From Leucoraja ocellata (taxonomy: Eukaryota): a stretch of 64,000 nt of DNA. Shown one piece after another: positions 4,945 to 60,022 of the stretch (the stretch's first letter is position 1; the number at the start of each line of letters is the position of its first letter). The DNA lies in assembly GCA_036785375.1 (NCBI GenBank), contig JAWMAR010000836.1, positions 186,001 through 250,000 of the forward strand, given 5' to 3'. The translations under genes were made by a program, and so were the position numbers. The notes below the pieces were generated by a model that was not told the DNA's origin, did no database searches, and saw nothing but the letters and a program-made list of their open reading frames with translations.

Positions 4945-6955
4945 CAGAAATGCAAAGCAGAAAGTTGCAGATGCTGGAAATGTGACCAAGATGTGAAAAA
5001 TGCTGGAGATACTTAGCCTATCCGATACTTGGTCAGGAACATGGGTAGGAAGAGTTTGGATGGGTATAGGTCTGGCACAGGCAAGTGGGACTAGCTCTGT
5101 TAGACTACGTGGTTTGTGCTTCTAACGCTATGATTCTGTCACTGTTCAGAAAGGTTGGGTTCTGCTTTGATAGTCAAAGCAGTTTTGTCGGGGAAGTGAT
5201 AACCTATCCTAATTTTAACTTCCGTTAGCTTTTTTCCAAATCAATGTACTTTACTCCTTTGTTGTTTAGCACGTCCCACTTGCGCTAGGTTTCGATCCTG
5301 AGCAAATCTCCTTGGAGCACTCTGTAATAATTGATAATAACTCCACTCTTCAGCACAAGGATATTTTTATTTGATGTATGAATTATTGAGTGCTAGTGTT
5401 ATTAAATCTGTGTATAGATCTATATATAGATCTTGACATGAGGGCGTAGTGAATAGTGGCTTGTGTGCGGCTTTTCAGATGGTTGGTATATTCCTTCAAT
5501 TTGGGTAGAGCTGCTGCCTTACAGAGCCAGAGATGCAGTTCGGTCCTGACTACAGGTGCTTGTCTGTACAGTGTTTGTACATTCTCACTGTGACTACGTG
5601 GGATTCCTTCCACATTCAATAGACAATAGGTGCAGGAGTAGACCATTCGGCCCTTCGAGCCACCACCGCCATTCAATGTGATCATGGCTGATCATTCCCA
5701 GTCAGTACCCAAAGTTCCAAAGATGTGCAGGTTTGTAGGTTAATTGTCTTCTGTAAACTGACCGTAGTGTGTTGGATCGAACTATTATATGGGCGACTGT
5801 TGGTCAGTGCTGACTTGATGGAACGAAGGGCCTATTGCCATGCTATAATCTATAAACTGATCTAATTGCAGATAACTTGCTTGTTAATGCTATTCCGAAA
5901 GTTGGCTGCAATGGCTGCTGGGCATCTGTAACAATCGAACGCCTGCACTTTATAACAAGTTATCACTAACTATAAATAGGGTCTGGATGCAACCCAATAT
6001 AGATCTGACCCCTTGCTGTTGTGGATGGCAATTCCATCTCTGGCACTCCAGAGCATGGTGACAGAATCACTCAACAGAGCATATTGCAGTGCCAAGATAA
6101 TTGGATTGCTGCGCAAAGTAGTACAACGCTAGAATTTAGAAGATTGAGGGGGGATCTTATAGAAACGTACAAAATTCTTAAGGGGTTGGACAGGCTAGAT
6201 GCAGGAAGATTGTTCCCGATGTTGGGGAAGTCCAGGACAAGGGGTCACAATTTAAGGATAAAGGTTCCCCTTTATCCTTAAATCCTTTAGGACCGAAATG
6301 AGAAACATTTTTCACACAGTGGTGAATCTCTGGAACTCCCTTCTACAGAAGGTATTTGAGGTCAGTTCATTGGCTATATTTAAGAGGGAGTTGGATGTGG
6401 CCCTTGTGGCTAAAGGGATCAGGGGGTTTGGAGAGAGGGCAGGTACAGGATACTGAGTTGGATGATCAACCATGAATCGCGGTGCAGGCTCGAAGGACTG
6501 AATGGCCTACTCCTGCACTGTTATGCGCTCCCTCTGCTAGTGTTATAGGGTACTCACCTTTCTCTGTTTCTCTGTTAGGCGCTTCCCCTCCTGGTGAATG
6601 CTATGTACTTACCTTTCTCTGTTTCTCTCCCGAGTACAGGCCTCGTGGCTGTGAGTCTGGAATCAAGGGGTCAAAGGCTCCTGTACCCGATTGGCCAAGC
6701 TGCGTCAGGTGACGGGTGACTCATCTGAAGCTTAAATACCAGAGTTTCCCAGGATTCTCTCTCTTCTTCGTCGACCCTGACTTGTGAGCAGCCTGCTGGT
6801 GTGAGCTGAGGAAGGCCTGGCCACATGGCATAGAACTTTGTGTACATTCACCATTACTTGTTAACAAATATTGAATTGGGACGGATAAGGGCTGATCTTG
6901 GTGTTTTCGGGTATTTTGTTTCAGGGTTATATCTCTTTAGGCATGTTTTAGAGGT

Positions 6956-7020
6956 TCTAGGGGTATGATTCTCGCTTGGGGTGCGAGAGGTCCCGGGTTC
7001 AAATCCCGGACGAGCCCCCG
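6956..7020 (+). pseudogene. 5'-truncated tRNA-Pro copy with anticodon GGG and CCA-like tail (CCG)
   Basis: Matches vertebrate tRNA-Pro from position 11 (TCTAGGGGTATGATTCTCGC...GGACGAGCCC); 5' acceptor strand GGCTCGTTGG absent; anticodon 6978-80. Confidence 0.9.
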
Positions 7021-7023
7021 TTT

Positions 7024-7534
7024 TGTTACGACTCCCGAATGCAGGTACTTCAGAGCCGCGTAACATAATTCAAAAACCAGGTTCAAGTTCAAAAATAGTT
7101 TTAATTATTCAATGGAACACAAAACCCAAACCTGATTTAAACAACCCAGTCAGGGATATGGATGGACTAACAAACAATTAAACAGTGCTCCAGCCAGCCA
7201 CGTAATGGACTGTCGAACCAGTGACACCCAATTATAGTGTCAGCCCTTATCTGTCCCAATTCAATATTTGTTAACAAGTAATGGTGAAAATACACAAAGT
7301 TCTATGCCATGTGGCCAGGCCTTCTGCAGCTCACACCAGCAGGCTGCTCACAAGTCAGGGTCGACGAAGAAGAGAGAGAATCCTGGGAGACTCTGGTATT
7401 TAAGCTTCAGATGAGTCACATGATGCAGCTTGGCCAATCGGGTACAGGAGCCTTTAACCCCGTGAAGGCCTGGACTCGGGAGAAAACAGGAACAGGTGAG
7501 TACCCTATAACACCAGCAGAGGGAGCGCATAACA
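7024..7534 (-). mobile_element. Complete LTR (511 bp) followed by a tRNA-Pro PBS
   Basis: Minus strand TGTTA...GTCGTAACA-AAA-CGGGGGCTCGTCCGGGAT (the canonical Pro PBS is TGGGGGCTCGTCCGGGAT); TATA-like CTTAAATA and ATTAAA inside. Confidence 0.75.
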
Positions 7535-8581
7535 TGCAGCTATTTTCTATGTTTCTAACTCTATTTTTCCCATGGGACATGAAACTTGTAACTGTAGGGA
7601 CAGGAACAGGCCCTTCAGCCCACAATGTCTGTGCCAAACACGACGCAAGTGACAAACTATATTGTGGTTATCTTCATTGAACAATGTAGCCAACGTTATC
7701 CCCTTTTAAGCCAAGGTGAGATGCAGTCTGCTCCACCATTAAATGGACTCCAAGATGTGCTGGCCTGAGACGTGAATGATGTGTAGCGGCATGCCATTCC
7801 AATGCTTATAAAGTTCTTAACCAAATATCATGCCTCTTGCATCATTTAAAATCTCCTGTGATCAGCATGGCGAGTTGGACCAAAGGGCCTGTTTTTATAC
7901 TGTACAAATCCAGTGTTTACATATTCTCCCAACAGAAAAATCAAGATATGAACATTCATTATTTTCCGCTTTTTAGAGGTTAAACAATGAGATGAACAAA
8001 TTTTACTCTTATGCTTGGCTACAAAATCCAAATTCTTAACTTGTTTTCAGTTTTCCAATCCAAAAAATATCTAATCAATTTTGTTCAGCAGTATTTTACT
8101 CTAATAAATTACTGATCTATTTTAACCATGCTTGTAATTTTTGTTTTTGCAAAAAAATGGTCACTGCAGTCTTGTTTCCACGACCTGTCATCCCCAATTA
8201 TCATAGCTTGCCCACAATGATAGACAACTTGTGCAACTCTGTGCAAAAATAATTATCTATTGTCGTCAGAAGTACTCTGCAAAATTGGACGTGGACTTTA
8301 TACACATTTGTTCGATGTATATTTTTCCTGAAAGCGAACTGATGAGTTATGGCCTCTCTCGGTAGACAATTCAAACAATTTGTAAATTAGAATGTCAGTC
8401 ATACAGCACACAAACAGGCCCTTCGGCCCATCTCATCCCTGTCAACCGTCTAGGTTAGTCCCATTTACCTGTACCCAGCCCAATGTCCCCAAACTTTTTC
8501 GATCCATGTACCTGTCCTCTTAATGAATTTTAAATTGTGGGGTAGGTTGATTTCCATGACCAAACTTGGAAAGGAGTTCAC

Positions 8582-11013: not shown

Positions 11014-11236
11014 ATGGGTGTGGTAGTAGCAGATGGTAAAGGCCCAAGAGCGGAAATCCCCGATGGTGGCTGGGGCTGGGCTGTTCTCATTGGCTGCTTC
11101 GTCATCACCGGATTCTCTTACGCTTTTCCGAAAGCCGTCAGCGTTTACTTCAAGGAACTAATCAAGGAGTTCCATATTGGGTACAGTGATACAGCATGGA
11201 TCTCATCCATTGTGCTCGCCATGTTGTACGGAACAG
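11014..11236 (+). CDS. slc16a3: Monocarboxylate transporter 4, coding exon 1
   Basis: Acceptor ctctgcAG at 10997-8, Kozak accATGg, MCT signature [27 protein letters not shown], donor GTcagt at 11237; 223 nt, phase 1. Confidence 0.96.
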
Positions 11237-13572
11237 GTCAGTCTTTACTGGGTAGTAACTGGATGTGATTCACTTTTATTCACAATCTAAATCTTAATTC
11301 GGAGCAATTTTTTAAACTTTAGTGTTTAATAATGCATGTAACATGCAACAAAGAATTGTAACAGTTATATGGGCAGCACAGAGACGCAGTGATAGAGTTG
11401 CAGTGTCACAGGGCCATAGACTTGGGATTGATTCTGATTACGGGCGCTGTCTGTACGGAGTTTGCACGTTCTCCCTGTGACCGCGTGGGTTTTTTTCTGG
11501 CTGCTGTGGCTTCCTCCCACGTTCCAAAGACGTGCAGGTTTATAGGTTAATAATTGGCTTCTGTAAATTGTTCCTCGTGTGTACATTAGAAGTAGTGTAT
11601 GGGTGACGAGGGCTAGAGGTGAAAAGGAGACACGTCCCAAGTAAAAAGAGGAGTGAAATATGAAGCTGGAGGGAGGGTTATTGGTGGAAGGGGATAGGGT
11701 GGTGGGGAGGAGAATGAATGGGGCTGAGGTAAATTGTGACTCTGTTATGGGAGTTGACTGTATGGATGAGGGGAAAGGAACAGGGTGAATGAGGTAGAGG
11801 GTAGGAGATAGTTGGAGAAATGTGTGAGTACGGTAGTGGGAGGGGCAGGGGAAAGAGAAGGGAGGTATTATATTACTTAATTAGAGAGCCCTGGACGGTG
11901 TTCCCTTTTGTAGGCTATGTCGCTGTGGCAGAGAGTGCATGGATGTGGGTGTATGCAACAATTTGTGCGCAGCAAGTGTGGGAAGTGGGAAATGTTAAAA
12001 ATGTAATAATTTTCTATATTTGCATGCAACTGCTTAACAGATTAATTTGAGGATTTAAATGTCTTGCTCAGTTCACGAGGCTTGCAGCTAGGGTTAAGTA
12101 GTGAACTTTGTCTGCAGCTGGTCTTAGAAACATAGAAAATAGGTGCAGGAGTAGGCCATTCGGCCCTTGGAGCCTGCACCGCCATTCAATATGATCATGG
12201 CTGATCATCCAGTCGGTATCCTGCACCTGCCTTCTCTCCATACCCCCTGATCCCTTTAGCCACAAGGGCCACATCTAACTCCCACTTAAATATAGCCAAT
12301 GAACTGGCCTCAACTACCTTCTGTGGTCTAGTCTATCAAGTCTATCAAGTCTTCATATGAAAGTCCTGACATCCTAGGAATCAGTCTGGTGAACCTTCTC
12401 TGTACTCCCTCTATGGCAGGAATGTCTTTCCTCAGATTAGGTCTTCCTGGCGCAGTGAGTGATCACTTGACCCTGGTGCAGTGAGTGATAATGTTTCCCT
12501 TCCCCTGCCTTTACACTCACATGCACGTTGTGGCCAGGTCATGTAGGTAGTGACTGGGATAAATTCCATTGTCGCCTAAACAAATCGCCGAGTGGCGCAG
12601 GCCCTTAACAGTTTGTTCTTTTCATTGTTATTGTCTTTATTTTAATTGAGAAAACTAACAAAGAGAAAGGGACTTTCTCTTCTGAGAAACGGGTAGCACA
12701 GCTGGTCGAGCTGCTGCCCTCACAGCGCCAGGGACCCAGATTCAATCCTAACCACATGTGCTGTCTATCTGGAGTTGACACATTCTCCCTGTGATTGCGT
12801 AGGTCTCCTCTGGGTGCTCTGGTTTCCTCCCACATCCCAAATATGTGCAGAATTGTAATTTAATCGGCCTCTGTAAGATTTGCCCTGGTGTGCAGGGAGT
12901 GGATGAGAAATCGTGTTTCCATGATACAGCCGTGATACTGTGTGAATGTAAAAGCCCACCTCAAAGGCATTTCTTTTCATTATAATGTGAATGGGAACCA
13001 AAGACAAATTTGTTTTTCATAATGGTGCACAAGTCAATTTCCAACAATTGACGTGGGAGAGTGAAATGATCTTTGAGGGGTATTTTTTTCACCGAGAGTG
13101 GTGGGTGTATGGAGTGAGCTGCCAGTGGAGGCAGATGGAGTGGTACAATAACAACATTTGGAAGACACAAAGTGCTGGAGTAACTTGGTGGTTCTGGCAG
13201 CATCTCTGGAGAACATGGATAGGTGATGTTTCGGGTCGGGACCCTTCATCAAACTGCTGTTGTCTATCAATGTTCTCCAGAGATACTGTCTGACCAGCTG
13301 AGTTACTTCAGCACTTTGACATTTTATGTAAACCAGCATCTGTAGTTGCTATTACAACATTTAAAAGACGTTTGAACAGATATACGAATGGGGAAGGTTG
13401 GAGGGGTTGAGTCAAATACGGGCAAATGGGACTGGCTTCTTGGTCGGAGTGGAAGAGATGTAACAGATTAGATTAACTCTGACTTAAGTCTTCTACGCTA
13501 GGCAAACTTGTGCTGAATTAAATACTTGCAGATATGCAACTTACCTGACTGACCTTTCTCCCCTTCTACCAG

Positions 13573-13716
13573 GACCGATATCCAGTGTACTTGTCAATCG
13601 CTTTGGTTGTCGTCCTGTGATGATGGTGGGAGGTTTATTTGCATCAGCGGGTATGATCCTGGGGTCACTGTGCACCAGCATCATCCAGATCTACCTTACG
13701 GTTGGCGTTATGACTG
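13573..13716 (+). CDS. slc16a3: MCT4 coding exon 2
   Basis: ttctaccAG|ga..., (G)[20 protein letters not shown]...VMTG, donor GTaagg at 13717; 144 nt, phase 1-1. Confidence 0.96.
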
Positions 13717-13768
13717 GTAAGGAGCTGTTAAAGCTAAAATGTAACTTTTTTTTAAATAAAGCTATATA

Positions 13769-15001
13769 CAGGTGCACAACCTTTTATCCGGAGTTCCAGA
13801 AACCGAAAAGCTCCGAAAACCGGCCATTTTTTCCAGATGTCGTCTGCGCACCAAAGCTCGCGTTTGGCGCCAAACTTGACCCAAAACGACCCACAGTCAA
13901 CCCAGGTCTGTACTACTGTAGCGGCTGCCTCCTCCCCGGAGACTGGGAGACGCTTAAACATCTGTAAATCATTGCTTAAATGTTAGTCAGTTAGTTTGGA
14001 GGGCTTTTATGTGAAGGGGGGATTGAAGGGGTAAACTTTAATTCTTAGTCCCCTACCTGGTCGGAGAGGCGGGGAGCGGTCAATGCCTTACCGGGTCGCC
14101 GTGCAGTAAGCTCCGCAGCGCTGAGGCCGGTGGGGCTGCGGGCGGCGCCGGTTGTAGCTCCGACCCCGGCAACTCTACCCCTGGCTCCGAGGCGCTCCAA
14201 ATCCAGCGCGGCCCGCGGCCGGACGCCCCAGCTCCGCGAATGTCGGGAGTCGGCGGCGTCGCAGCGCTGGGATACCAGCGGGGAGCGGGCAATGCCTTAC
14301 CGGGTCACCGTGCGGCAAGCTCCGGAGCGCTGTGGCCGCCGACACACAACATCGCGGAGCGTCGCTGGATTTGGAGCCGCGGAGCCAGGGGTAGAGTTGC
14401 CGAAGTCGGAGCTCCAACCGGCGCCGCCCGCGGCCGGACGGAGCCCCCAGCTCCGCGGCTCCAAATCCAGCGACGCTCCGCGAATGTTGGGACTCGGCGT
14501 CCACAGCGCTCCGGAGCTTGCCGCACGGTGACCCGGTAAGGCATTGCCCGCTCCCCGCTGGTATCCCAGCGCTGCGACGCCGCCGACTCCCGACATTCTC
14601 GGAGCTGGGACGTCCGGCCGCGGGCCGCGCTGGATTTGGAGCGCCTCGCAGCCAGGGGTAGAGTTGCCGGGGTCGGAGCAACAACCGGTGCCGCCCGCGG
14701 CCGGACGGAGCCCCCAGCTCCGCGATGTTGGGAGTCGGCGACCAGGTAGGGGACTAAGAATTAAAGTTTCCCCCTTCACCCTACTCCACCACCACCACAT
14801 AAAATCCCTCCAAACTAACTGACTAACATTTATGCAATGATTCCCCGGTCTCCGGGGAGGAGGCAGCTGCTCCAGACTTTTCAAGCCGCCCGCGCTACCT
14901 ACCTAATCTACGCTAAAAATCTTCCATTCTGAAATCCGAAAATGTCCGAAATCCGACAAGTGTCTGGTCCCAAGGCTTTCGGATAAAAGGTTGTGCACCT
15001 G
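13769..15001. mobile_element. Tc1/mariner (pogo/Tigger-like) non-autonomous element, GC-rich foldback
   Basis: TA|CAGGTGCACAACCTTTTATCCG...CGGATAAAAGGTTGTGCACCTG|TA; nested internal inverted repeats. Confidence 0.9.
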
Positions 15002-16733: not shown

Positions 16734-16753
16734 AAACTTGTTTTTTCTCCCAG

Positions 16754-17533
16754 GTCTGGGTCTGGCCTTGAACTTTCAACCATCCCTCATCATGATAAAC
16801 CGCTACTTTGACAAGCGACGGCCGTTAGCTAATGGCCTGACTGCAGCTGGGAGCCCCGTCTTTCTGTGTACCCTCTCACCGTTGGGCCAAGTACTGATCA
16901 AGACGTACGGGTGGCGAGGGGGCTTCCTCATCTTTGGGGGTCTGCTGCTCAACTGCTGTGCCTGTGCAGCTCTGATGAGACCACTGCGGCCAAGCGGCAA
17001 AGAGAAACCCCAGCTGAAAGAGGAGAAGGAGACACCAGTGAAGAAGCACAAAATGCAGCTGCTGGATTGCTCTGTTTTCAAGAACCGAGGTTTTCTCATT
17101 TACACCATCGCGGCGTCCGTCATGGTCTTTGGACTCTTTGTTCCTCCTGTCTTCGTCGTAAACTATGCAAAAGACTTGGGAATACCAGACACAGACGCTG
17201 CTTTCTTGTTATCCATCTTGGGATTCGTCGACATTTTCGCCCGCCCGCTCTGCGGTATTCTCGCGGGTACAAAGTTCATGCGCCCCCGATGTGTATATTT
17301 CTTTGGCTTTGCAATGCTCTTCAACGGGATCACTGATTTGGGCGGCTCCTTTGCTCACGATTATGTCGGACTGACAGTGTTCTGTATTTTCTTTGGAATG
17401 TCCTATGGAATGGTGGGCGCCCTGCAGTTCGAGGTGTTGATGGCCATTGTTGGAACCCAGCAGTTCCCCAGTGCGATCGGACTGGTGTTGTTGATGGAAG
17501 CCATGGCCGTGTTGGTAGGCCCACCAGGTGCTG
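16754..17533 (+). CDS. slc16a3: MCT4 coding exon 3
   Basis: ttttttctcccAG, [28 protein letters not shown]...DIFARP...LVGPPGAG, donor GTaagt at 17534; 780 nt, phase 1-1. Confidence 0.97.
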
Positions 17534-17998
17534 GTAAGTACATGTGCACGCGTGTGCGAGCGTGTTCACTCCAACATTAACAAGAAACAAAGGTGGGGGG
17601 GGGGGGGGGGGAAATTGAACAAAATGTTTCAATGACACAAATGGGGGGCAGGGGGGAGGAAGGAAGGAAGAATCATAAATGTGATTCCAGTGAGTCTATT
17701 CACCAGAGCAATCGGGAGTGGAGATACCAGAAGCAAAAACAAAGACTGGGAAGGGTAGATGTGGTGGAGTTGCAGACAATGAGGAAGGCAGTCAGAAGAA
17801 AAAGAGGGCTATAGACCAGCTGCAGAATAGGTGGAGAAATGGCAGATGGGGTTTAACCTGGGGAAGTGCAAGGTGTTGCAAACTGGGAGGTTGAATTCAA
17901 GGAGGGAGTATACAGTTAATGGAAAAACCGTTGCAGGCATTGATTGCAGAGGGATAGAAACATAGAGTCCAAGTTCATCGGTCACTATGGTGACAATA

Positions 17999-20371
17999 CA
18001 GGTGCACAACCTTTTATCCGAAGATCCAAATAACGAAAACCTCCGAATAGCGACATTTTTTCAGTCCTTGAAAAAAGGTCCTTGAAAACGTTCACGGAGG
18101 GCGGCCCGCAGAGGTGACAGAGGAACCTCCGGTCGGTCCTCGAAGAAAGGGGAACTAAATCCCCATCCATAAAAGAGAAGGTGAGGGTATATTGCGCGGG
18201 AGGGTTAATAATTGACAATCTGCTGCTGCCTGCCCGCTCAGTTAAAAAATTCCCACGGTAGACTCACGATACACAGTGGATCGTGAGTCTTGCATGAGAA
18301 CTTTTTATCTCAGCGGGCAGGCAGCAGCAAATTGTCGCTCCCTTACGTTTCACCCCACCTACACCCCTCTGCTTCCCGGCCATGTGTGTGACCCCTTCCC
18401 TCCCCTCTCCAGCTCCCCGCCCATTGCACCGGCGCGGGGGCTTTGCACTGCCTTCACGTCGGAGCTAGTGCCAGAGATGTCAGGCCCAACGGGACACCGA
18501 CCCCCAGGCCCACTGCAAGCACGGAGATCCCAGAGACCCGCAGCCAGCAGCAGCCCAGCCCCGTTCCAACTCCAGAGGAACACGCTCCCCGTAGGGACCG
18601 AAGCTGATGGTGTGCAAGGTGCGTCTTGGTCTTGAGGTTGCAGATGAGGGGGCGCAGCTCGGGCTGTGACGTCTCCGGCCACCCCCCTGTACAGGAGCTG
18701 AGACTGGGAACTGTGGGGTTGTTTGCAGTTGCAGAGGGAGGGGGCAAGGGCGGTACAGTTCCCAGTCTCAGCTCCATTCCAGGGGGGTGACCGGAGACTT
18801 CAGGACCAACGGGACACCGACTGCAAGCACGGAGATCCCAGAGACTCACAGCCAGCAGCAACTCTAGCCCAGCCCCGCTCCAACTCCAGAGGAACCCGGG
18901 TTGCAGATGAGGGGGCGCAGCTCGGGCTGTGGGCGAACTGCCACTTGTCGCCGTAGCGGCCCATCGGGGAGCGGGTTCCTGTTGGTCCTGACGTCTCCGG
19001 CCACCCCCCTGGACAGGAGCTGAGGGACGTCAGGACCAAAGATCCTAGAGGAGCTAGGATCTTTGGTCAGGACCACCAGAAGCCGCTCCCCGATGCGCCG
19101 CTACAGCGACAAGTGGCAGTTCGCCCACAGCCCGAGCTGTGCCCCCTCATCTGCCACCCGGGTTCCTCTGGAGTTGGAGCGGGGCTGGGCTGGACACCGA
19201 CCCCCAGGCCCACTGCAAGCACGGAGATCCCAGAGACTCACAGCCAGCAACAACTCTAGCCCAGCCCCGCTCCAACTCCAGAGGAAAACTGCGAACTAGC
19301 GGGAGACATCGGGACCACCAGAAGCCGCTCCCCGATGCGCCGCTACGGCGACAAGTGGCAGTTCGCCCACAGCCCGAGCTGTGCCCCCTCATCGGGACAC
19401 CGACCCCCAGGCCCACTGCAAGCACGGAGATCCCAGATCAGCAACTCCAGCCCAGCCCCGCTCCAACTCCAGAGGGGCAGCTGCTGCTGGTGCGTAAGGT
19501 GCGTCTTGTTCTTGAGGTCGCGCAGCTCGGGCTGTGGGCGAACTGCCACTTGTCGCCGTAGCGGCCCATCGGGGAGCGGATTCCTCTGGTGTTGGGGGTG
19601 GGGGGGGGAGGGGGAGGGGGGTATTGTGCTGTTTGATCGCCCCCTGCTATCCCAGGGACAGGGAAACAGGACGTTCACCGAGGGCGGCCCGCAGAGGTGA
19701 CAGCGGAACCTCCGGTCGGTCCTCGACGAAAGGGGAACTAAATCCCCATTCATAAAAGAGAAGGTGAGGGTACATTGACCGGGAGAGTAGGAATCCCAAG
19801 ACAAAGTTGAGTGAGCGTTCACCGAGGGTGGCCCGCAGAGGTGACAGGGAACCTCGGGTCGGTCCTGGAAGAAAGGGGAACTAAAAAGAGAAGTGGAGGG
19901 TATATTGCGCGGGAGGGTATATCGCCTACCTGGAAGAAACCAGACATTTTTTCCAGGATGTCTGCACACCAAAGCTCACGTTTGGCGCCTCTGCTGCACA
20001 CGGATATCAGAGTGTGAAAATGTCGCCTTAGGCCGCCTTAGGGCATGTAGCCCCGCTAGGGTGACATGAGTGCGGGAGGTGATTCAATGCTGCGGTCACA
20101 TTTACAAATTCAGGAACTCATTCAACACACTGCATTTCATACAGACATTTATTCTGCAAGAAAAAAACTACACTGAAGACTCAAACTCGCGACCGAGGAA
20201 CTGCCGGGATCAAGGCGCAAACTCGCGACCTTGCGGATATGAGCCGGGCACTCGACCACTGAGCCAGCCATTAAAATCTACGCTAAAAAATTTCCATTCC
20301 GAAGACCGACAAATTCCAAATTACGAAAAGTGTCTGGTCCCAAGGCTGTCGGATAAAAGGTTGTGCACCTG
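17999..20371. mobile_element. Second element of the same TIR family with a different interior
   Basis: Identical 22-bp TIRs and TA TSD; inserted in a CR1 fragment; scrambled GC-rich direct and inverted modules. Confidence 0.9.
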
Positions 20372-20985: not shown

Positions 20986-21123
20986 ACGTTGCTGAGAATG
21001 ATCTTGAATACCTGCTTTAACCATGTGGGGTAAACTGTTTTTGCTTGAGCTGTTTGCTTGCATGAATGCTGGGTTTTGTGTGACGAAGGTATTAATTTTT
21101 CTTTTGCACTGTACCTGTTACAG

Positions 21124-21404
21124 GGAAACTGTTGGATTATACAAAGGTTTACAGGTATGTTTTTTACTTGGCTGGCACCGAGGTGCTCCTCTCGGCCCTG
21201 ATACTGACTGTCGGAAACTTTTTCTGCATAAGTGGGAAAGCTAAACCACCTGAGACTGAGCCGAAGGACGCTGTGCAAGAGGCGAGGCCAGGGGAGCTGG
21301 ACCAAGAGCAGGGAACTGTGGAATCTGTGGAAGTGGACCAGTTCCTGAAAAGCGACACGGAAGATAATGGGGAAATTGTGCCGACGCCCGAAACCAGCGT
21401 ATGA
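21124..21404 (+). CDS. slc16a3: MCT4 terminal coding exon
   Basis: ttacAG|gg aaa ctg ttg gat; GKLLDYTKVYRYVFYLAGTEV...TPETSV*. The C-terminal PETSV matches MCT4 rather than MCT3. Spliced CDS 1428 nt = 475 aa. Confidence 0.95.
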
Positions 21405-33864: not shown

Positions 33865-36205
33865 CAGGGCTGCCAAGAATGGGTGAGAGTTGGGAATTAG
33901 AAATTGCAAGGGGCCAAGCCCAATGGCGCGTAGCTCCTGTGGGGTGGGGTGGGGTGTTGGAGCTTGAAATTGTGCAATCTGGTGCACACTTTAGCGAGTC
34001 TTTTAACTTGCACTTGAATACAATATGCTTTAAATTGGATTAGCTATGAATAAGGTTAGGCTAAATTACATTCCACAGTAGAGCCAGGTTCCGATTGACA
34101 GGTGCAGCACATCAATGATCTTAGTGTATTCATGTGTGGAAATCAGATTTTAATCAAATACTTGCTCATGTTGACCAACCTGGGTCCCACTGCACACCGG
34201 GTACTCCTGACCCTGACTCCAGTTGCATACCTTCTCTCATTCCTGACCCTGAGTCCAGCCTTACACCCAGTACTATTCCAGACCTTGACTGGATGCACAC
34301 TTGCCTTGCTCCTAGCCCCTCTGCATTGACAATATATCTGGCCCACACATAAAGCCCCACAACTGACCCCCTGGACATAACCTATTACGTACAAGTCCAC
34401 AGGTGCTTATCTACTGCAGTAATCTTTTATGGGGCACTTCACTGACCCATTGGCGTCCTTGTTATCTAACATGCTAGTTACTTTGTCAAATAAGTCATCA
34501 ATTGGTTGAACACAATTTCTCATCCCTAAAATTATACTCACTCAGCTGTATAAGTATTCTGTTACCATTTCCTTCATTTTCCTAACAAACTGTCCTGAAG
34601 TCATTTTCACCCCCAATATCTCCAGTATTTTGGTGTCTTCCTCTCAGCTGGGACTTTTCCGCAAGATCTAATAACTATATATTTAAGCAATATTATTCTA
34701 TTAAATGTGTTAATATGAGAGTACATAATATTTTCTGTGGTATTCATAATACATATCATTCAAAATGATAAAAAGATCTTTATTTTGATTGCACCTACCA
34801 ACATGCGTACATTATTATATTACAGTTAATATGTACCAAAGGCAATTTTTTGTTCCATTGCTCATGAGATATTTTTGTTTCATTAATTAAACGAGATTGG
34901 AGACATTTCTATTCAACTTGTCAAAGGTATTTGAGGGGGGGTTTAGAAATAGTCAGTGAGGTAAACAAACATAATAGTTGTGTGGCAAATGACAATAGTG
35001 CTACCTTCCCAATATTTAATTGGAGGAAATAATGGGTTATCGGGGCTGTATGTTGTGACACCTTGCATGTCATTTTAATATTACACTTATCCCATCCCCC
35101 TGGATATTCCGGATTAATAAATTAAGGTTTTGTCAACTAATTACAAATCAATAACATTAGCCAACTCAGAAACATGAAGCGCTGAGCATTGGAATCCAGA
35201 CATCACGGACAACTGCCCTCTGTTCCCGCTCACATCTGGCAGTGCTCTCCGTCTGAACCAGGGGCCACGGAGCGATTTTGAAAGTGGGGAGGCTGAGCGA
35301 TCACTGATCACTGGCCTTGGGGATACACAGTGAGGGAGTGGAGCAACCGAGTGGGGAGAGGGTGTGGAAGGGGGGGGGGGGGGTGTCCCCTCTCATGGTA
35401 GGGACTTTTGAAATTTGATATATTAAAATCATGTTTTAGTGCATTGTAGAAGTATGATTTCAATGTTTTTTGTTTAAGTATTTAAGGTATAAAGTATGTT
35501 TAAGGGGTAACTTTTTCCACACAAAGGTGTATGGAATAAGTTGCCGGAGGAGGTAGTTGAGGCAGGGACTACCCAACATTTGAGAAACAGACCGATACAT
35601 GGATAGGACAGGTTTGGAGGTATGGACAAAAAGCAGGTAGCGTAGCTGGGACATGTTGGCGGGTGTGGGCAAGTTGTGCCGAAGGGCCTGTTTTCACACT
35701 GTATCACTCTATGACTACATTATACCTCCACCATGCATGAATGCTTCAAAATCAAGTGGCTTGAGTTTTATTTCCATATACTCAAGCATAGAAACATAGA
35801 AAATAGATGCAGGAATAGGACATCGGCCCTTCGAGCCAGCACTGCCATTCAATATGATCATGGCTATTCATCTAAAATCAGTACATCTTTCCTGTTTTTC
35901 CCCCATATCCTTTGATGTTGTTAGCCCCAAGAGCTAAATGTATCTCCCTTAAAAACATCCAGTGAATTGACCTGCACTGCCTTCTGTGGCAGAGAATTCC
36001 ACAGATTCACAACTCTCTGCGTGAAGAAAGTTTGTCCTCATCTCAGTCCTAACTGGCCCCCCCTTTATTCTTAAACTGTGACCCATGGTTCTGAACGCCC
36101 CCAACATCGGGAACATTTTTCCTGCAGTTACAGTAAGTGAAAATCTAGCAGGCAAGCAGGATGCTTCCTCCATCCACCCCCATTTGAAGCTCACTATCTG
36201 CCACC
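33865..36205 (+). repeat. Copy 1 of the CAGGGCTG element (right-truncated)
   Basis: Colinear with 42768-45610 over >2 kb with indels, including shared embedded CR1 fragments. Confidence 0.85.
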
Positions 36206-36511: not shown

Positions 36512-37412
36512 CTGTCGAAGAACAATAAAGATTAGATTATTCAGAAGATATTTCTTAAACTTTCCNNNNNNNNNNNNNNNNNNNNNNNNNNNNNNNNNNN
36601 NNNNNNNNNNNNNNNNNNNNNNNNNNNNNNNNNNNNNNNNNNNNNNNNNNNNNNNNNNNNNNNNNNNNNNNNNNNNNNNNNNNNNNNNNNNNNNNNNNNN
36701 NNNNNNNNNNNNNNNNNNNNNNNNNNNNNNNNNNNNNNNNNNNNNNNNNNNNNNNNNNNNNNNNNNNNNNNNNNNNNNNNNNNNNNNNNNNNNNNNNNNN
36801 NNNNNNNNNNNNNNNNNNNNNNNNNNNNNNNNNNNNNNNNNNNNNNNNNNNNNNNNNNNNNNNNNNNNNNNNNNNNNNNNNNNNNNNNNNNNNNNNNNNN
36901 NNNGACAGGTTGGAATGATCTTTGCAAGGGCCATCTGTGAGTTTTCTTCCAATACATCCTAGATTGGGAGGGAGAGATAGATCAGGCATGATTGAATGGT
37001 AGAGTAGACATGATGGGCCGAATGGCCTAATTCTGCACATATTGTCCATTGTCTCTGGGGAACGATGTGCGGGCTCTGGACAGAGGGTCCAGGAACAAGT
37101 GAGTTAACGTTTACGATGAGCGTTTGTCGGCGCTGGGCCTGTACTCGCTGGAGTTTAGAAGAATGGGGGGGGGGGGGGCACCTAATTGAAACTTCACCCG
37201 AACAGTGAAAGGCCCGGATAGAGTGGATGTGGAGAGGATGTTTCCACTGGTGGGAGAGTCTAGGACCAGAGGGCGCAGCCTCAGAATTAAAGGACGTTCC
37301 TTTAGGAAGGAGATGAGGAGGAGAGAGAGAGGGAGAGGGGGAAGAGAGAGAGAGAGGAGGAGGAGGAGGTAGGGAGGGAGGGAGGGAGGGAGGGAGAGAG
37401 AGGTAAACATAC

Positions 37413-41547: not shown

Positions 41548-42767
41548 CGTGCCCTCCATAATGTTTGGGACAAAGACCCATCATTAATTGGTTTCTTTAT
41601 TTAGTTGCCTCTGTGCTCCACCATTTGACATTTGTAATTCAATAAATCACACGTGATTAAGGTGCACATTGTCAGATTTTAATAAAGGCCATTTTAATAC
41701 ATGTTGGTTTCACCATGTAGAAATTACAGCACTGTTTATACATAGTCCCCCCATTTTAGGGCACCATAATGTTTGGGACACAGCAATGTCATGTCAATGA
41801 AAGTAGTCAATAATAGGCAACAGACAATAGGTGCAGGAGTAGGCCATTCGGCCCTTCGAGCCAGCACCGCTATTCAATGTGATCATGGCTGATCATCCCC
41901 AATCAATACCCCGTTCCTGCCTTCTCCCCATATCCCCTGACTCCGCTATCTTTAAGTGCCCTATCTAGCTCTCTCTTGAAAGTATCCAGAGAGCCGGCCT
42001 CCACCGCCCTCTGAGACAGAGAATTCTACAGATTCACAAATCTGTGGGTGGAAAAGTTTTTCCTCGTCTCCGTTATAAATGGCTTACCCCTTATTCTTAA
42101 ACTGTGGCCCCTGGTTATGGACTCCCCAACATTGGGAACATGTTTCCTGCCTCTAGCGTGTCCAAACCATTAACAATCATATATGTTTCAATGAGATCTC
42201 CTCTCACCCTTCTAAACTCCAGAGTGTACAAGCCCAGCCGCTCCATTCTCTCAGCATATGACAGTCCCGCCATCCCGGGAATTAACTTGGTGAACCTACG
42301 CTGCACTCCCTCAATAGCAAGAATGTCCTTCCTCAAATTTGGAGAACAAAACTGTACACAATACTCCAGGTGTGGTCTAACCAGGGCCCTGTACAACTGC
42401 AGAAGGACCTCTTCACTCCTATATTCAACTCCTCTTGTTATGAAGGCCAACAGGCCAAAACTGCAACAATACTCCAGGTGTGGTCTCACCAGGACCCTGT
42501 ACAACTGCAGAATGACCTCTTTGTTCCTATACTCAACTCCTCCTGTTATGAAGGCCAACATGCAATTGGCTTTCTTCACTGCCTGCTGTACCTGCATGCT
42601 TACTTTCATAGACTGATGAACAAGGACCCCCAGATACTGTTATACTTCCCCTTTTCCCAACTTGACACCATTTAGAAAGTAGTCATATTTAGTATTTTGT
42701 TGCATATCCATTGCATGCAATGACTGCTTGAAGTCTGCGATTCATGGACATCATCAGTTGCTGGCTG
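41548..42767. mobile_element. Tc1-like IR/DR transposon end, interrupted by CR1 and truncated by the CAGGGCTG element
   Basis: GTGCCCTCCATAATGTTTGGGACA with direct repeat CATAATGTTTGGGACA at ~41557 and ~41765; sequence resumes at 42675. Confidence 0.6.
41810..42674 (-). mobile_element. CR1 LINE 3' fragment
   Basis: RT C-terminal ORF (LYRALVRPHLEYCVQF, with an internal ~108-bp duplication); 11-bp TSD GAAAGTAGTCA at 41799 and 42675. Confidence 0.9.
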
Positions 42768-45700
42768 CAGGGCTGCCAACATTGGGTGAGAGTTGGGAGT
42801 GAGAAATTGTGAGAGACCAAGCCTAAGGGACCGTAGCGACCGGGGGTGGGAGGGGGGGGGGGGGGGGGGGGGGTGGGCAAGAGGGACACCCCCCCCCCTC
42901 CCATTGGTACAGAGCTTTTGCATTTTTCAGTTTGAAATTGTGCAATCTGGTGCATACTGTAGCGAGTCTTTTAACTTACACTTGAATGCAATATTTATGC
43001 TTTAAATTGAATTAGCTATGAACAAGGTTAGGCTAAATTACATTCCTAATTATATTCCACAGTAGAGCCAGGCTCTGATCAACAGGTGCAGCACATGAAT
43101 GATCTTAGTGTATTCATGTATGAAAATCAGATAATAATCAAACACTTGGTCCATGTTGACCAACCTGGGTCTCACTGCACACCTGGTACTACTCCTGACC
43201 CTGACTCCAGTTGCATATCTTCTCTCATTCCTGACCCTGAGTCCAGCCTTACACCTGGTGCCCTATTCTACCCTGATCATAGCTCCTTATCTGCTTAGGT
43301 TCCCAGTGCTGAACATTCCCATTGTCCCAGCTTTGACTGCACACCTTGTACTATTCCAGACCTTGACTCTGGATGCACACTTGGCCTTGCTCCTAGCCCC
43401 TCTGCATTGACAATATATCTGGCCCACACATAAAGCCCCATATCTGACCTATTTAACCTATTACGTTCAAGTCCACAGGTGCTTATCTACTGCGGTAATC
43501 ATTTATGGGGCAATTCACAGACCAAATTATCTATAACATAATTTGCTACATCCATTGGCTTCCTTGTTATCTAACATGCTAGTTACTTTGTCAAATAAGT
43601 CATCAATTGGTTGAACACAATTTCTCATCCATAAAATTATACTCACTCAGCTGTATAAATATTCTGTTACCATTTCCTTCATTTTTCTAACAAACTGTCC
43701 TGAAGTCATTTTCACCCTCAATATTTTCAGTACTTTGCTATCTTCCTCTCAGCTGGGGCTTTTCCGAAATGCAAAGTCTAATAACTATATATTTGAGCAA
43801 TATTATTCTATTTAATGCGTTAATATGAGAGTACATAATATTTTCTGTGGTATTCATAACACAACAATGATAAAAATATCTTTGTTTTGATTGTGCCTAC
43901 CAACATGCATACATTAATATATTACAGTTAATAAGTACAGAGGGCAAATTTTTGTTCCATTGCTCCCCATTCCCAATTACTTTTACTTTGAAGTGATTGA
44001 AATCCAAGTGAAGTTGAAATGGCATCAGAAAAATAAAACCTCTGGAATGGATGATATTCATTACATGGTTGGTTGGAGTCAGTATCAGCACAATTACTAT
44101 ATTAAACTTTGAATCTTCAGATGTCCTGGTTCAAGTTAAAACTAAAGACAGATAATAACCTTCTCACATGTTCCCCTACAAGTATCTCTGTCACTCCTTT
44201 AAAATATGCCCCTTCTTTGAACAAGCTCTTAAACATCGCATCTGAATCAGTTTCCATCTGATTACACTCCATGCGGATGTTCATCTACGTGTTCAATTAA
44301 TCAAACAATGAGATTGGGGACATTTCTATTCAACCTGTCAAAGGAATTGGGGGAGGGGGGTTAGAAATAGTCAGTGAGGTAAACACACAGAATAGTTGTG
44401 TGGCAAATGACAATAGTGCTACCTTCCCAATATTTAACTGAAGGAAATAATGGGATGTCAGGGCTGTATATTGTGACAGACAGCCTGACACCTTGCATGT
44501 CATTTTTAATATTACACTTATCCCATCCCGCTGGATATTCCGGATTAATAAATTAAGGTTTTGTCATCTAATTACAAATCAGACTAATTACAAATCAATA
44601 ACATTAGCCAACTCCGAAACACGAAGCGCTGAGCATTGGAATCCAGACATCACGGACAACTGCCCTCTGTTCCCCGCTCACATCTGGCAGTGCTCTCTGT
44701 TGAACCAGGGGCCACGGAGCGTTTTTGAAAGTGGGGAGGCTGAGCGATCACTGATCACTGGCCTTGGGGATACCCAGCGAGGGAGTGGAGCAACCGAGTG
44801 GGGGTGTCCCCCACCCACCGTAGGGACCTTTTTGAAATTTGATGTATTAATATCATGTTTTAGTGCATTGTAGAAGTATGATTTCAATGTTTTTTGTATG
44901 AAGTATTTTTAAGAGGTAACTTTTTAAGGGGTAACATTTTTCACATAAAGGGTGATGGGTGTATGGAACAAGCTGCCAGAGAGGTAGTTGAGGCAGGGAC
45001 TATCCCAACATTTGAGAAACAGTTAGACTGATACATGGATAGGACAGGTTTGGAGGTATGGACCAAAAGCAGGTGGCGTAGCTGGGACATGTTGGCGGGT
45101 GTAGGCAAGTTGTGCCGAAGGGCCTGTTTTCACACTGTATCACTCTATGACTACATTATACCTCCACCATGCATGAATTCTTCAAAATCAAGTGATCGAG
45201 TTTTATTGCCATATATTCAAGCATAGAAACATAGAAAATAGGTGCAGGAATAGGCCATTCGGCCCTTCGAGCCAGCACCGCCATTCAATATGATCATGGC
45301 TATTCATCTAATATCAGTACCTCTTTCCTGTTTTTTCCCCCATATCCCTTGATTTTGCTAGCCCCATGAACTAAATGTAACTCTCTCTTGAAAACATCCT
45401 GTGAATTGGCCTCCACTGCCTTCTGTGGCTGAGAATTCAACAGATTTACAACTCTTTGTGTGAAGAAAGTTTGACCTCATCTCAGTCCTCACCATCCTAC
45501 CCTTTATTCTTAAACTGTGACCCCTGGTTCTGAACTCCTCCAACATCAGGAACAATTCTCCTGCAGTTATATTAGTGAAATCTACCATTTGAAGGCCACT
45601 ATCTTCCACCGTTTCTACCCAGTGCTTGGTACTTACTTCCAGCAGCCCCTGGTTGTCTTCCAGGATGCACCGAGCCGCAGCCTGATTCATGCCGGTCACC

Positions 45701-54169: not shown

Positions 54170-57004
54170 TTAAGCTCTGATCTCTTGGTTTCTCTGGTTT
54201 GGTGGGAGCCACGTGTTTGCCTGCCAGATATCTTCCTTTTCTTGTAAATGGCAGTTTAGCTACAGTTAACCCGACTGTCACCCACTTCAGTCCATTTCCC
54301 ACAGATTTGCTCTCTCCCCCCCCCCCCACCCCTCCCGCCCCCCCTCATCCAGAGAAAGATCAGGTGCCCTTAACCTCCTCTGCAACCCCACCACCCTCTA
54401 CATCCAGTGTAGTCCCTCAGGCAGCTGTCAACAAGTGCCATGCCAGTGCAACCTTGCAGCATGTCCATTGACCACAAGGTTCCTGTTGACGTGTCAGGCA
54501 AACCCTCAAACGATGTTGAACATTCATTCCAGGAAATGCCCTGCCGTCTAGACCAAGAGACCTGCTGCTGAACATGTAACAAGTCTTAGGACGTCACATA
54601 ACATCCTACTGAGAATACAACCAGTACATGTATCTGTATGAATCATCTCAATCAATCATTTAACATTGAATTCCAAATTACTTACAAAGGAACCAGTATA
54701 CTTGCAGAAAGGTTTCCAAATTTAACCAGTACTAATATAGCATGTGATCAGTGCTGGCAATATTCTGTTTGAGAAGGAACTGCAGATGCTGGAAAATTGA
54801 AGGTAGACAAAAGTGCTGGAGAGACTCAACGGGTGCAGCAGCATCTATGGAGCAAAGGAAATAGGCAACGTTTCGGGCCGAAACCAAAGGGTTTCGGCCA
54901 GAAACGTTGCCTATTTCCTTGGGATTCAGCCCAAAATGTTGCCTATTTCCTTTGCTCCATAGATGCTGCTGCACCCGTTGAGTTTCTCCAGCACTTTTGT
55001 CTACCTGCCAATATTCTTCCAATATTCTTCCTTTAACTTAGGAACACAAGATGTTTTGGGCATTTTAGACTCATTGCATTACTCCATCAATTGTGGGATT
55101 GACACAAACATTCCTCTAACGGCTTGGATAAGAGTGGATGTGGAGAGGATGTTTCCACTAGTGACCAGTGGTCATAGCCTCAGAATTAAAGGACGTTCCT
55201 TTCGGAGAATGAGGAGAAATGTATTTAGTCAAAGGGTGGCATATCTGTGGAATTCTTTGCCGCAGAAAGCTGTGGAGGCCAAGTCAGTGGATATTTTTTA
55301 AAGCAGAGATAGATAGATTCTTGATTAGTACGGGTGTCAGAAGTTATGGGGAGAAGGCAGGAGAATGGGGTTAGGAGGGAGAGATAGATCAGCCATGATT
55401 GAATGACTTGAAGGGCTGAATGGCCTAATTCTACTCCTATTCCTTATGAAATAGGACTTGTTTAAACGCAAGTCTTGAAAGGAAAACATTCAGGCAAATT
55501 TAGAGTCACTGAGCCATGCAGCACAGAAATAGCTGACGAAGAGTCCCGACCTGAAACACTGTCTATCCACTCCCTTCACAAACGCTGCCCCACCTGCTGA
55601 GGTCTATTCAAGTAGCTCCACGTCTTCAGTCCAGCAGAGAAAAGATCCAGAGCTTTTATTCCTGATTGGTGAACAGTGACCTCAACTGGAATAATTAGTG
55701 ACTGCAGCTCAAGAGAAAAGGTTGAGAGCCTCAGTGATCAGAGACAAGGAATTGCAGATGCTGGAGTCCTGAGCAAAACACAAAGTGATGGAAGAACAAC
55801 GGGGCAAGCAGCATCTGTGGAGGGAATGGATAGGCGACGTTTCAGTTTGGGAACCCTTAAGGTTTGAAGAAGGGTCCCAACCCAAAACGTCACCTATCCA
55901 TGACCTTTGCGCCTTTTTTTGTAAACCGGCATCTGTAGTTTCCCGGATTCATCATTCACCTGCCAGGGGTAAATATCAAAGCACACCAAACAATTTAATT
56001 GAAAATCTTGCACAGGGATTCACCTTCATTAAAATTTAATTCACAATATCATTGATAATTCTAAGAGGAAAGTGTCAACATTTGTACATACCAGCCACTC
56101 ACTGACTGATGATGTATAGAGCACATTAAGATTATATGACAATATTGACCCACTGTTAATACCCATCATTTTGCAAGCTCTGCACATATTTAATTTCCAA
56201 TCCATGCATTCCTTCCTCGTTGAAGAGCTTGGAGGCATTTTCTTAAATAAGACATCCACTGAATTGGACATCTGTTTTAATTCACTAATCTTCACTCCAG
56301 CCTCTCTGACAGACCTGATTGTCAGAGACAGAGATCTCCCACCATGAATAGACTTTATCAATCAATGTCAAACTCAAGCTGAAATGGTAACGTCTTGATT
56401 TAGCGAACTCTGCACAGGCAGCACCCGTGGTCAGGATCGAACCTATGTCACTGGCGCTGTGAGGCAGCAGCTCTACCGCTGCGCCACTCTGCCGCCCCAT
56501 GAGAAAGCAATTTGTGGAGCAATACCGAGGTCAACGTGACCATTTTATGGGGATTCTTTTTATCTAAGCCATGCTGTAAAAATCAGAGTTTTAATCTAAT
56601 TTTATTATATTATTATATTGAGGGATTAAAAGGTCAAATCCCAAAGCTTGCTTTGACATGGATGCTGTTAGCACCTGCCCATTCACAATCCAGCCTCACC
56701 TCTACAGTGCCAGTTTTAATATTCATTCATTAGACAATGCAAAAAACAGCAGCCGCAGAGGGAAATTCTCCCGTTCCCCGACTGAATGAAGTTGAGGGCT
56801 CAGGTGGACCTCCGATCAAAGAATAACAAACATTTTTGCAGAAAATGGATTGCAAGGTTGAACCATGCCAACATCTGCATAAAAACACAATATCTTCCAT
56901 ACATACTTAGCTTTGTGTTTATTAATGTCACACATATTGAGGTATAGGGTCAAAGGGCATGATGCACGGGGCAGCTCAATCCGTCTGGAGGATTTTGCAG
57001 CCTC

Positions 57005-57188
57005 CGGCATACACTGTTAACACACGGAACGCGTACTTTCTTACCTGTTAAAAACCACCAAAATGGTAAATTCTTGCGCTGTAAATAATTGTGGAGGGCG
57101 ACTGAGCGCTTTGAACCAAATCTTTGCTCTGAACCCGAGCACCAAGGTGTAAACGGCCAAAGGAGCGCATCCCTCGGGACAGCCCCCA
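57005..57188. repeat. Second copy of the 1.1-1.9 kb foldback family
   Basis: Shared motif aaaaacc.ccaaaatggt...gcgctgtaaataattgtgga and gagcgcatccctcgggacagcccc. Confidence 0.7.
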
Positions 57189-59141: not shown

Positions 59142-60022
59142 TTACACAAAAAAGCTGGAGAAACTCAGCGGGTGCAGCAGCATCTATGGAGCGAAGGAAA
59201 TAGGCAACGTTTCGGGCCGAAACCCTTCTTCAGACTGATCGGGGGCGGGGGTGGGTGGGGACAAGAAAGGGAAAAGGAGGAGGAGCCCGAAGGCTGGGGG
59301 ATGGGAGGAGACAGCAGGGGGGCTGAGGAAGGGGAGGAGACAGCAAGGACTAACAAAATTGGGAGAATTCGATGTTCATGCCCCCGGGGTGCAGACTCCC
59401 CAAACGGAATATGAGGTGCTGTTCCTCCAATTTCCGGTGCTGCTCGCTGTGGCCATGGAGGAGACCCAGGACAGAGAGGTCGGAGACGGAGTGGGAGGGG
59501 GAGTTGAAGTGCTGAGCCACAGGGAGGTCAGCTTGGTTATTGCGGACCGAGCGGAGGTGTTCGGCGAAACGATCGCCCAACCTCCGCTTGGTCTCACCGA
59601 TATAGATCTGCTGACATCTATAGCAGCGGACGCAATAGATGAGGTTGGAAGAGATGCAGGTAAACCTCTGTCGCACCTGGAACGATTGCTTGGGTCCTTG
59701 AACGGAGTCGAGGGGGGAGGTAAAGGGACAAGTGTTGCATCTCTTGCGGTTGCAAGGAAAAGTGCCCGGGGAGGGGGTGGACCGAGAGGGAAGGGAAGAA
59801 TTGACAAGGGAGTTATGGAGGGAGCGGTCTTTGCGGAAGGCAGATATGGGGGGAGATGTGGCGAGTGGTGGGGTCACGTTGGAGGTGGCGAAACTGACGG
59901 AGGATTACTTTTTGTATGTGACGGCTGGTGGGGTGAAAGGTGAGGACTAGGGGGACTCGGCCCTTGTTGCGAGTGCGGGGATGGGGAGAGAGAGCAGTGT
60001 TGCGGGGTATTCTTAAACAGAA
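59142..60022 (-). mobile_element. Penelope-like element 3' part with GIY-YIG endonuclease
   Basis: ORF 59350-59877 with CNRKRCNTC...NLIYCVRC...IYIGETKRRLGDRFAEH; 16-bp TSD CAGCATCTATGGAGGG. Confidence 0.9.

Follow-up and report, generated by a model that had tools for sequence, protein, structure and literature searches.

An inverted LTR-tRNA-Pro-LTR unit inserted in a LINE tail of Leucoraja ocellata, and its possible origin from over-run of a tRNA primer

How can two LTRs come to lie in opposite orientation on either side of a copy of a primer tRNA, and enter a genome together? The question is raised by a 1,016-bp unit at positions 6519-7534 of a 64,000-nt stretch of Leucoraja ocellata DNA (assembly GCA_036785375.1, contig JAWMAR010000836.1, positions 186,001 to 250,000). 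We refer to this whole stretch as the window, and all positions are those of the window. The unit is a real feature, and consists of a 511-bp LTR-like arm, 3 nt, 65 nt of tRNA-Pro, 60 nt, and an inverted, truncated variant of the arm.

Anatomy of the unit and its insertion site

On the minus strand, the order of elements is the right arm (7534-7024), AAA (7023-7021), the complement of tRNA-Pro (7020-6956), the spacer (6896-6955) and, in reverse complement, the left arm (6519-6895). The right arm is a full LTR-like sequence with U3, R and U5, while the left arm, which reads on the plus strand, is a variant LTR that comprises a U3-like part and the first part of R and is truncated there. A first-pass annotation of the stretch had described a minus-strand 511-bp LTR, the AAA and a tRNA-Pro PBS, followed by a diverged and truncated variant of the same LTR in the opposite orientation, and alignment confirms both the coordinates and the anatomy. 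The two arms (6519-6895 on the plus strand, 7534-7240 on the minus strand) match by blastn with 84% identity over 324 columns (E 1.5e-99). In a global alignment, 280 of the 295 aligned positions are identical, and the remainder are 15 mismatches (9 transitions), with three gaps of 56, 19 and 7 nt for which the extra bases are all in the left arm. Two of these extras, both in the U3-like part, are variants of short direct repeats. The U3 parts differ at 10 of 160 positions as well as by the three indels, and the R parts at 5 of 135. The indels suggest that the arms were made from two different templates, and not by the fold-back of one molecule.

The right arm begins with TGTTA and ends with TAACA, and carries a short imperfect end repeat. 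Its termini (TGTTATG ... CGTAACA) fit the integrase att motifs listed for rGmr1 (TGTNANR/CGTNACA) and Sushi in Table 3 of PMC3601003. Within the arm there are short candidate promoter and poly(A) motifs, namely an inverted CCAAT at 97, a TATA-like motif at 132 and an ATTAAA at 430, but no AATAAA. The left arm retains CCAAT-like and TATA-like motifs. Both outer ends of the unit are the same U3 end, as the first reading of the sequence had proposed, and no polypurine tract (PPT) lies outside them. Because the LTRs are inverted, where two direct LTRs would be expected, and because the PPT is absent, the unit is not a standard LTR element.

The spacer is 60 bp long, in agreement with the earlier description of about 60 bp of no assignable origin. 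Its composition (30 T and 16 G on the plus strand) is like that of the T/G-rich 3' part of the LTR. Against the remainder of the right LTR it shows no significant similarity (p 0.42, by shuffles), and its reading as a diverged part of that LTR was rejected on this basis; within the window its best match has an E-value of 0.19. The spacer would most simply be a continuation of the variant LTR itself. A possible junction microhomology, in which 6940-6946 resemble the 5' acceptor strand of the tRNA at 5 of 7 positions, was also rejected, since shuffled sequences did equally well near the junction in 18% of cases (p 0.18).

The unit codes for nothing. None of its frames contains a Pfam domain, and the five Pfam matches found in the whole window (all 124 N-free frames that reach 88 aa) include no integrase, RNase H, protease or gag. 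A blastn search of the 64-kb window returned no second copy of the unit or of its arms, so that one copy is present there.

The unit is inserted in the 3' fragment of a LINE, which occupies 6121-6518 on the plus strand to the left of the insertion (blastn to other LINE tails of the window; tblastn) and resumes in register on the right (7540-7558). The fragment matches the C-terminal ORF of an endonuclease- and RT-bearing LINE at 50.3-52.7 kb (tblastn E 1.2e-19; Pfam), and we take the host LINE to be of CR1 type from its C-terminal motif and tail. A perfect 15-nt inverted repeat with a 4-nt gap lies inside the same fragment, at 6250-6283. The first-pass annotation had claimed a 5-bp target-site duplication (TSD) in this tail. 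The claim stands as to length and place, with an empty site in all seven paralogous tails, although the left copy (TGCAC, 6514-6518) and the right copy (TGCAG, 7535-7539) agree at only four of their five bases; the mismatch may be later or initial. In the paralogous tails printed, the target word is single in seven of seven and exactly TGCAC in five of seven, and these empty tails run from the word straight into the sequence that resumes at 7540. Empty paralogues on one side and a filled TGCAC-unit-TGCAG on the other indicate that a single event brought in all 1,016 bp. The one-piece integration that had been suggested is supported, as an insertion of the integrase type, by the paralogues with an empty site and by the att-like ends, which match. 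A 5-bp TSD that directly abuts TG...CA ends is what insertion by integrase leaves (here with the 4/5 match), and the range for integrase-made TSDs is 4-6 nt (PMC5210030).

The tRNA-Pro copy and its LTR junction

The tRNA-Pro copy (6956-7020, sense on the plus strand) covers linear positions 11-75, based on comparison with the sequences given in PMC12217144 and PMC5159642, the second of which shows a CGG form of tRNA-Pro with the same body. By eye, 63 of the 65 bases agree with the Pro-TGG-3-1 sequence of PMC12217144, and the two differences are the wobble base and the terminal A, both of which are G in the copy. The complementarity claimed earlier, of about 65 nt, is therefore correct in length, with the exception that the first base of the PBS (7020) mismatches the terminal A of the tRNA. 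On the minus strand, 7003-7020 is an ordinary 18-nt PBS, which starts 3 nt past the right arm's 3' end and matches tRNA-Pro at 17 of 18 bases, and 6956-7002 is a 47-nt over-run. For comparison, the gap between LTR and PBS in ERVs is 2-4 nt (PMC7472051). The 17-nt core of the PBS occurs once in the window, with 0.03 occurrences expected.

Normally the plus strand of a retroelement extends 18 nt into the primer and ends at m1A58. Here A58 (7002) and G37 (6981) are both copied correctly. The copy carries the CC of the CCA end, with G as its last base, and lacks the first ten 5' bases, so that its 5' break adjoins G9/G10; tRNA-Pro presumably carries m1G9. This modification is common in fish tRNAs (PMC11417395). 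The five CpGs of the reference are all intact, which suggests that the copy is young, and the terminal G creates a sixth.

The anticodon, at 6978-6980, is GGG. With few exceptions, eukaryotes have no genes with GNN anticodons in the boxes where A34 is converted to inosine, Pro included (PMC8007984), and the human Pro genes are UGG, CGG and AGG (PMC11251516). RT reads inosine 34 as G in zebrafish tRNAs (PMC11417395). A simple calculation over the 65 nt gives a chance of about 3% that two substitutions would hit the wobble base. Taken from the sequence, the most likely template is a mature, inosine-edited tRNA-Pro, because the copy combines the GGG anticodon, the CC of CCA and the loss of the first ten bases. 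These three features, together with control elements whose tRNA match stops at 18-19 nt (see below), add support to the proposal that the primer tRNA was read through. Two points stand against it. The last base is not the expected one, and no misincorporation is seen at A58 or G37, so that an under-methylated primer would be needed.

ARAGORN calls a single tRNA-Pro(GGG) in the window, at 6940-7019, while Rfam gives no match to the copy at the gathering threshold, and weak tRNA-like matches by E-value alone. On the plus strand the copy, with its T-loop (B-box region) intact and a run of four T after it, resembles a truncated pol III unit (6956-7024). The four T are the 3-nt spacer and the end of the LTR.

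As controls, genome contigs were searched for an LTR end followed by 1-5 bases and the PBS core, which gave four loci (L001-L004). These are eukaryotic contigs inside bacterial assemblies, titled Sedimenticola sp., and are probably host contamination in species-representative genomes. In all four, the tRNA match ends at 18-19 nt after a 2-3 nt spacer, and a gag-sized ORF directly follows the PBS. In three of them pol begins with a MYND finger, after which RT, RNase H and integrase follow in Gypsy order, and one of these also shows a weak match to protease; the fourth contig ends within gag. Their LTR end (TAACA) and Pro PBS form the same junction as the skate right arm, but the likeness is confined to the junction and PBS, and the LTRs are unrelated. 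Essentially, the control elements show how the junction works, and not the family to which the skate arm belongs. Among the best 120 of 173 relatives of the control elements, the named ones include teleosts, a frog and lancelet, and no cartilaginous fish; look-alikes of the control gag in the Atlas fall mostly in chordate clusters.

Judged by these sequences, gag-pol Gypsy elements normally have, as their 5' junction, an inner LTR end followed by 3 nt and a Pro PBS. The parent of the skate arm was most likely a tRNA-Pro-primed LTR retroelement of Gypsy type, and a class I ERV with a Pro primer would be an admissible alternative. No gag-pol partner of the skate LTR is present in the window, and translated-frame searches gave no firm candidate. 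A translated-frame search for other copies of the LTR returned one weak match (E 2.4e-4, 35% identity), and an exact 22-nt word of the LTR had no match in species-representative genome contigs. Such blanks say little, because the collections hold little skate DNA.

Possible routes to the unit

In Ty3, the first plus strand, which copies the tRNA, undergoes displacement and builds up as a dead-end product, while more plus strands are started (PMC5371799, PMC7472051). The right arm and tRNA copy are exactly such a tRNA-copying plus strand. We consider it likely that a read-through strand of this kind was joined to a sister LTR, whether by an RT switch or by host end-joining, and was then integrated. 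With less assurance, we favor the more specific account in which the primer was read through, RT itself switched onto the sister LTR, and integrase inserted the product, as a one-off or rare recurrent accident.

The events would then be as follows. In the first step, which is well supported, plus-strand synthesis would have copied U3-R-U5 and the 3-nt spacer, passed A58 of the primer, and gone on to copy 65 nt of mature, inosine-edited tRNA-Pro, ending at position 11 beside the often methylated G9. Over-run into the tRNA would block the normal transfer at the PBS and so leave the 3' end to move to a second LTR strand. For this second step, we infer a move onto the R of a variant LTR strand in the same particle, which would have been copied to its U3 end. 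A displaced plus strand, with its clean U3 5' end, would be the natural partner, and the use of a variant plus strand as second template would explain why the arms differ by indels. In the third step, which is supported, the short duplex with its two U3 att ends would have been inserted by integrase into the LINE tail with a 5-bp duplication. The RNA template, the second template, the enzyme and the place of the join are all inferred. Read-through of A58 occurs with under-modified primer (PMC8599865, PMC13191261), and longer over-extended plus-strand products are recorded in PMC13191261. Against this account, PMC8599865 states that over-run strands are unable to complete synthesis or integrate.

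One locus cannot separate an RT switch from host end-joining. In the latter case, two separate cDNAs would have been attached at one site by integrase, each through its U3 end, and their inner ends, namely the tail of the tRNA copy and the truncated variant LTR, would have been fused by end-joining, with the spacer being either variant LTR or filler. Two-donor concerted integration is known from in vitro work, and its product would be the same, down to the 5-bp TSD and the difference between the arms. A spacer without a match and a junction without significant microhomology agree with such a fusion. It requires, however, two half-integrations, with all else of both molecules being lost exactly at the tRNA tail, and a single RT jump is simpler; we regard this route as unlikely.

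Somewhat more doubtful is the idea of a mobile, non-coding element with inverted LTRs, of which the unit would be one copy, and which propagates on a helper's integrase and uses the dead-end strong-stop DNA of a Gypsy helper as primer. A standard retroelement cycle is impossible for the unit, as it has neither direct R repeats nor a PPT. A transcript from the left promoter, containing the tRNA and the antisense LTR, might instead anneal to the helper's displaced plus strong-stop DNA, which would prime copying; a jump to the helper's R would supply the second U3, and each cycle would yield a U3-ended unit. A selection argument favors such a family, in that a scan will come across one of many members more readily than an isolated accident. 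Promoter-like motifs are kept in both arms, and the U3 parts differ more than the R parts, as borrowed U3s would do, though the difference is small. Set against these points are the single copy in 64 kb and the cycle itself, which is our own construction and for which we found no precedent in the literature.

The over-run could also be older than the unit. If a long tRNA match from a past read-through had been inherited in the parent family, the spacer would be its 5' leader and the inverted LTR alone would be accidental. The spacer can equally be read as an A/C-rich leader on the minus strand, and the short primer over-extension sequences known in lentiviruses (PMC13191261) are a precedent. 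Known over-extensions span few bases, however, the control elements uniformly stop at the ordinary PBS, and a near-perfect copy with intact CpGs suggests recent copying, all of which make this reading very unlikely.

It is harder still to derive the unit from something other than LTRs, either as a Ginger-like TIR transposon with a captured tRNA gene or pseudogene, or as a pre-existing tRNA locus. The ends do fit TGTNR, which is common to Ginger and Gypsy, and the plus-strand tRNA with its intact T-loop and following four T is called as a gene by ARAGORN. But the 5-bp TGCAC duplication and arms of about 295 bp are unlike Ginger1 and Ginger2, the inner LTR end lies exactly 3 nt from the tRNA's 3' end, and the tRNA lacks its first ten bases while carrying the CC of CCA and a GGG anticodon, with the four T being accounted for by the spacer and LTR end. 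An assembly or library chimera can hardly be the answer: although the assembly window has three N runs and inverted repeats are error-prone, the arms differ at 15 sites and by three indels, the LINE tail is continuous with a TSD, and the nearest gap, at 36566, is 29 kb away.

Surroundings, implications and known systems

Four coding exons of SLC16A3/MCT4 are found on the plus strand (11014-11238, 13572-13748, 16747-17544 and 21114-21401), and the unit is upstream of them, at a distance of about 3.5 kb from the first. The exons are 86-95% identical to the Amblyraja radiata protein, which is also the best named match, at 96%, in a search with the large exon (16.7-17.5 kb). Introns of the gene contain GC-rich, internally repeated stretches at 14042-14900 and 18450-19590. 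The window is otherwise rich in LINE fragments, one of which has a 108-nt tandem duplication (42347-42560). A frame with a THAP domain is present at 1629-1985 on the minus strand (Pfam E 6.9e-9), and pieces at 1090-1252 and 1854-2009 are related to 56940-57187; the region is probably a DNA transposon remnant. There is also a direct duplication of about 2.2 kb (33961-36150 and 42929-45587, 86-87% identity), which is broken by insertions, and a 184-aa frame at 59353-59904 on the minus strand, which has no Pfam match and which we take to resemble the GIY-YIG endonuclease end of a Penelope-type element.

Strong splice-donor-like words occur antisense in the U3 of both arms, at 7493-7501 on the plus strand and at 6552-6560 and 6607-6615 on the minus strand. 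The unit holds three of the four matches to the splice-donor-like pattern in the window, and the one on the plus strand points towards SLC16A3. A transcript from the presumed start of the right arm is predicted to fold at -368.8 kcal/mol (z -30, relative to 20 shuffled sequences), and its stem spans about 135 bp. The hairpin follows from the inversion of the arms and is no evidence of function; as a matter of speculation, it could feed small-RNA silencing.

If the account favored here, of primer read-through and an RT switch, is right, then the unit is an in vivo, germ-line case of a primer over-run that was rescued and integrated, contrary to what PMC8599865 states. It would also be a record of the isoacceptor that primed and of its editing, that is, a tRNA-Pro with inosine 34. 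In the case of HTLV-1, direct sequencing of virion products was needed to establish the primer isoacceptor (PMC11251516). The unit suggests a cheap genome-wide screen, for an LTR end joined to a long tRNA complement with G34. On the same account, LTRs would give rise in one step to inverted repeats with TGTNR ends, an origin which for Ginger1 is put forward only as a hypothesis in PMC2836005. Were the unit instead a member of a mobile family, it would link LTR retrotransposons and Ginger-type TIR transposons as a living intermediate, and would carry its own source of hairpins able to silence the parent family. Taken as a single dead fossil, the unit has a modest biological reach.

Primer or strong-stop sequence is preserved as DNA in other settings also. 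Colicelli and Goff reportedly described, in 1986, retroviral circles in which a tRNA copy separates the LTRs, and Ty1 cDNA is captured at double-strand breaks; to our knowledge, in neither case are there two inverted U3 ends together with an integrase-type TSD. A literature survey, mostly of titles and abstracts and with few subscription or older papers, yielded no description of an integrated inverted LTR-tRNA-LTR unit. An ERV with an inverted 5' LTR is known from the guppy (PMC5210030), but it has internal genes, unlike the skate unit, and no tRNA over-run is mentioned in that account. In DIRS-1 elements, inverted LTRs are able to give sense and antisense transcripts, as in the skate unit, and the defining features are ORFs for a tyrosine recombinase and RT and an internal complementary region (PMC5633606). 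A DIRS-1-like identity was rejected, as the unit has no ORF with a Pfam domain and, apart from the short end repeat of the LTR, no internal sequence that matches the arm ends; it lacks a tyrosine recombinase, and has a TSD and tRNA priming.

With Ginger1 and Ginger2, the unit has TGTNR inverted-repeat ends in common, and the TIRs of Ginger1 have been proposed to stem from two opposed LTRs (PMC2836005). According to the same source, Ginger1 has a 4-bp TSD (CCGG/CCGT) and TIRs of 40-270 bp, and Ginger2/Tdd has a 4-bp TSD at RTATAY in animals, with 5 bp in Dictyostelium TDD only, and TIRs of 50-180 bp. The skate unit differs in having no transposase, a non-specific 5-bp TSD, an inner LTR end with a tRNA copy, and arms longer than 270 bp. 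Membership in Ginger1 and in Ginger2/Tdd was rejected from the TSD (5-bp TGCAC) and the arm length (about 295 bp).

The four control Gypsy elements, with a pol order of MYND-PR-RT-RH-IN in the three that extend far enough, have the TAACA end, the 2-3 nt spacer and the PBS as in the skate, but their PBS stops at 18-19 nt and gag follows, and beyond the junction there is no LTR similarity. The over-extended plus-strand strong-stop DNA of Ty3/Gypsy elements and retroviruses likewise consists of U3-R-U5 and then a primer copy (PMC5371799, PMC8599865, PMC13191261), and its longer products are seen with under-methylated A58. Relative to such DNA, the skate unit is distinguished by a 47-nt over-run, an inverted second LTR, and fixation in the germ line with a TSD.
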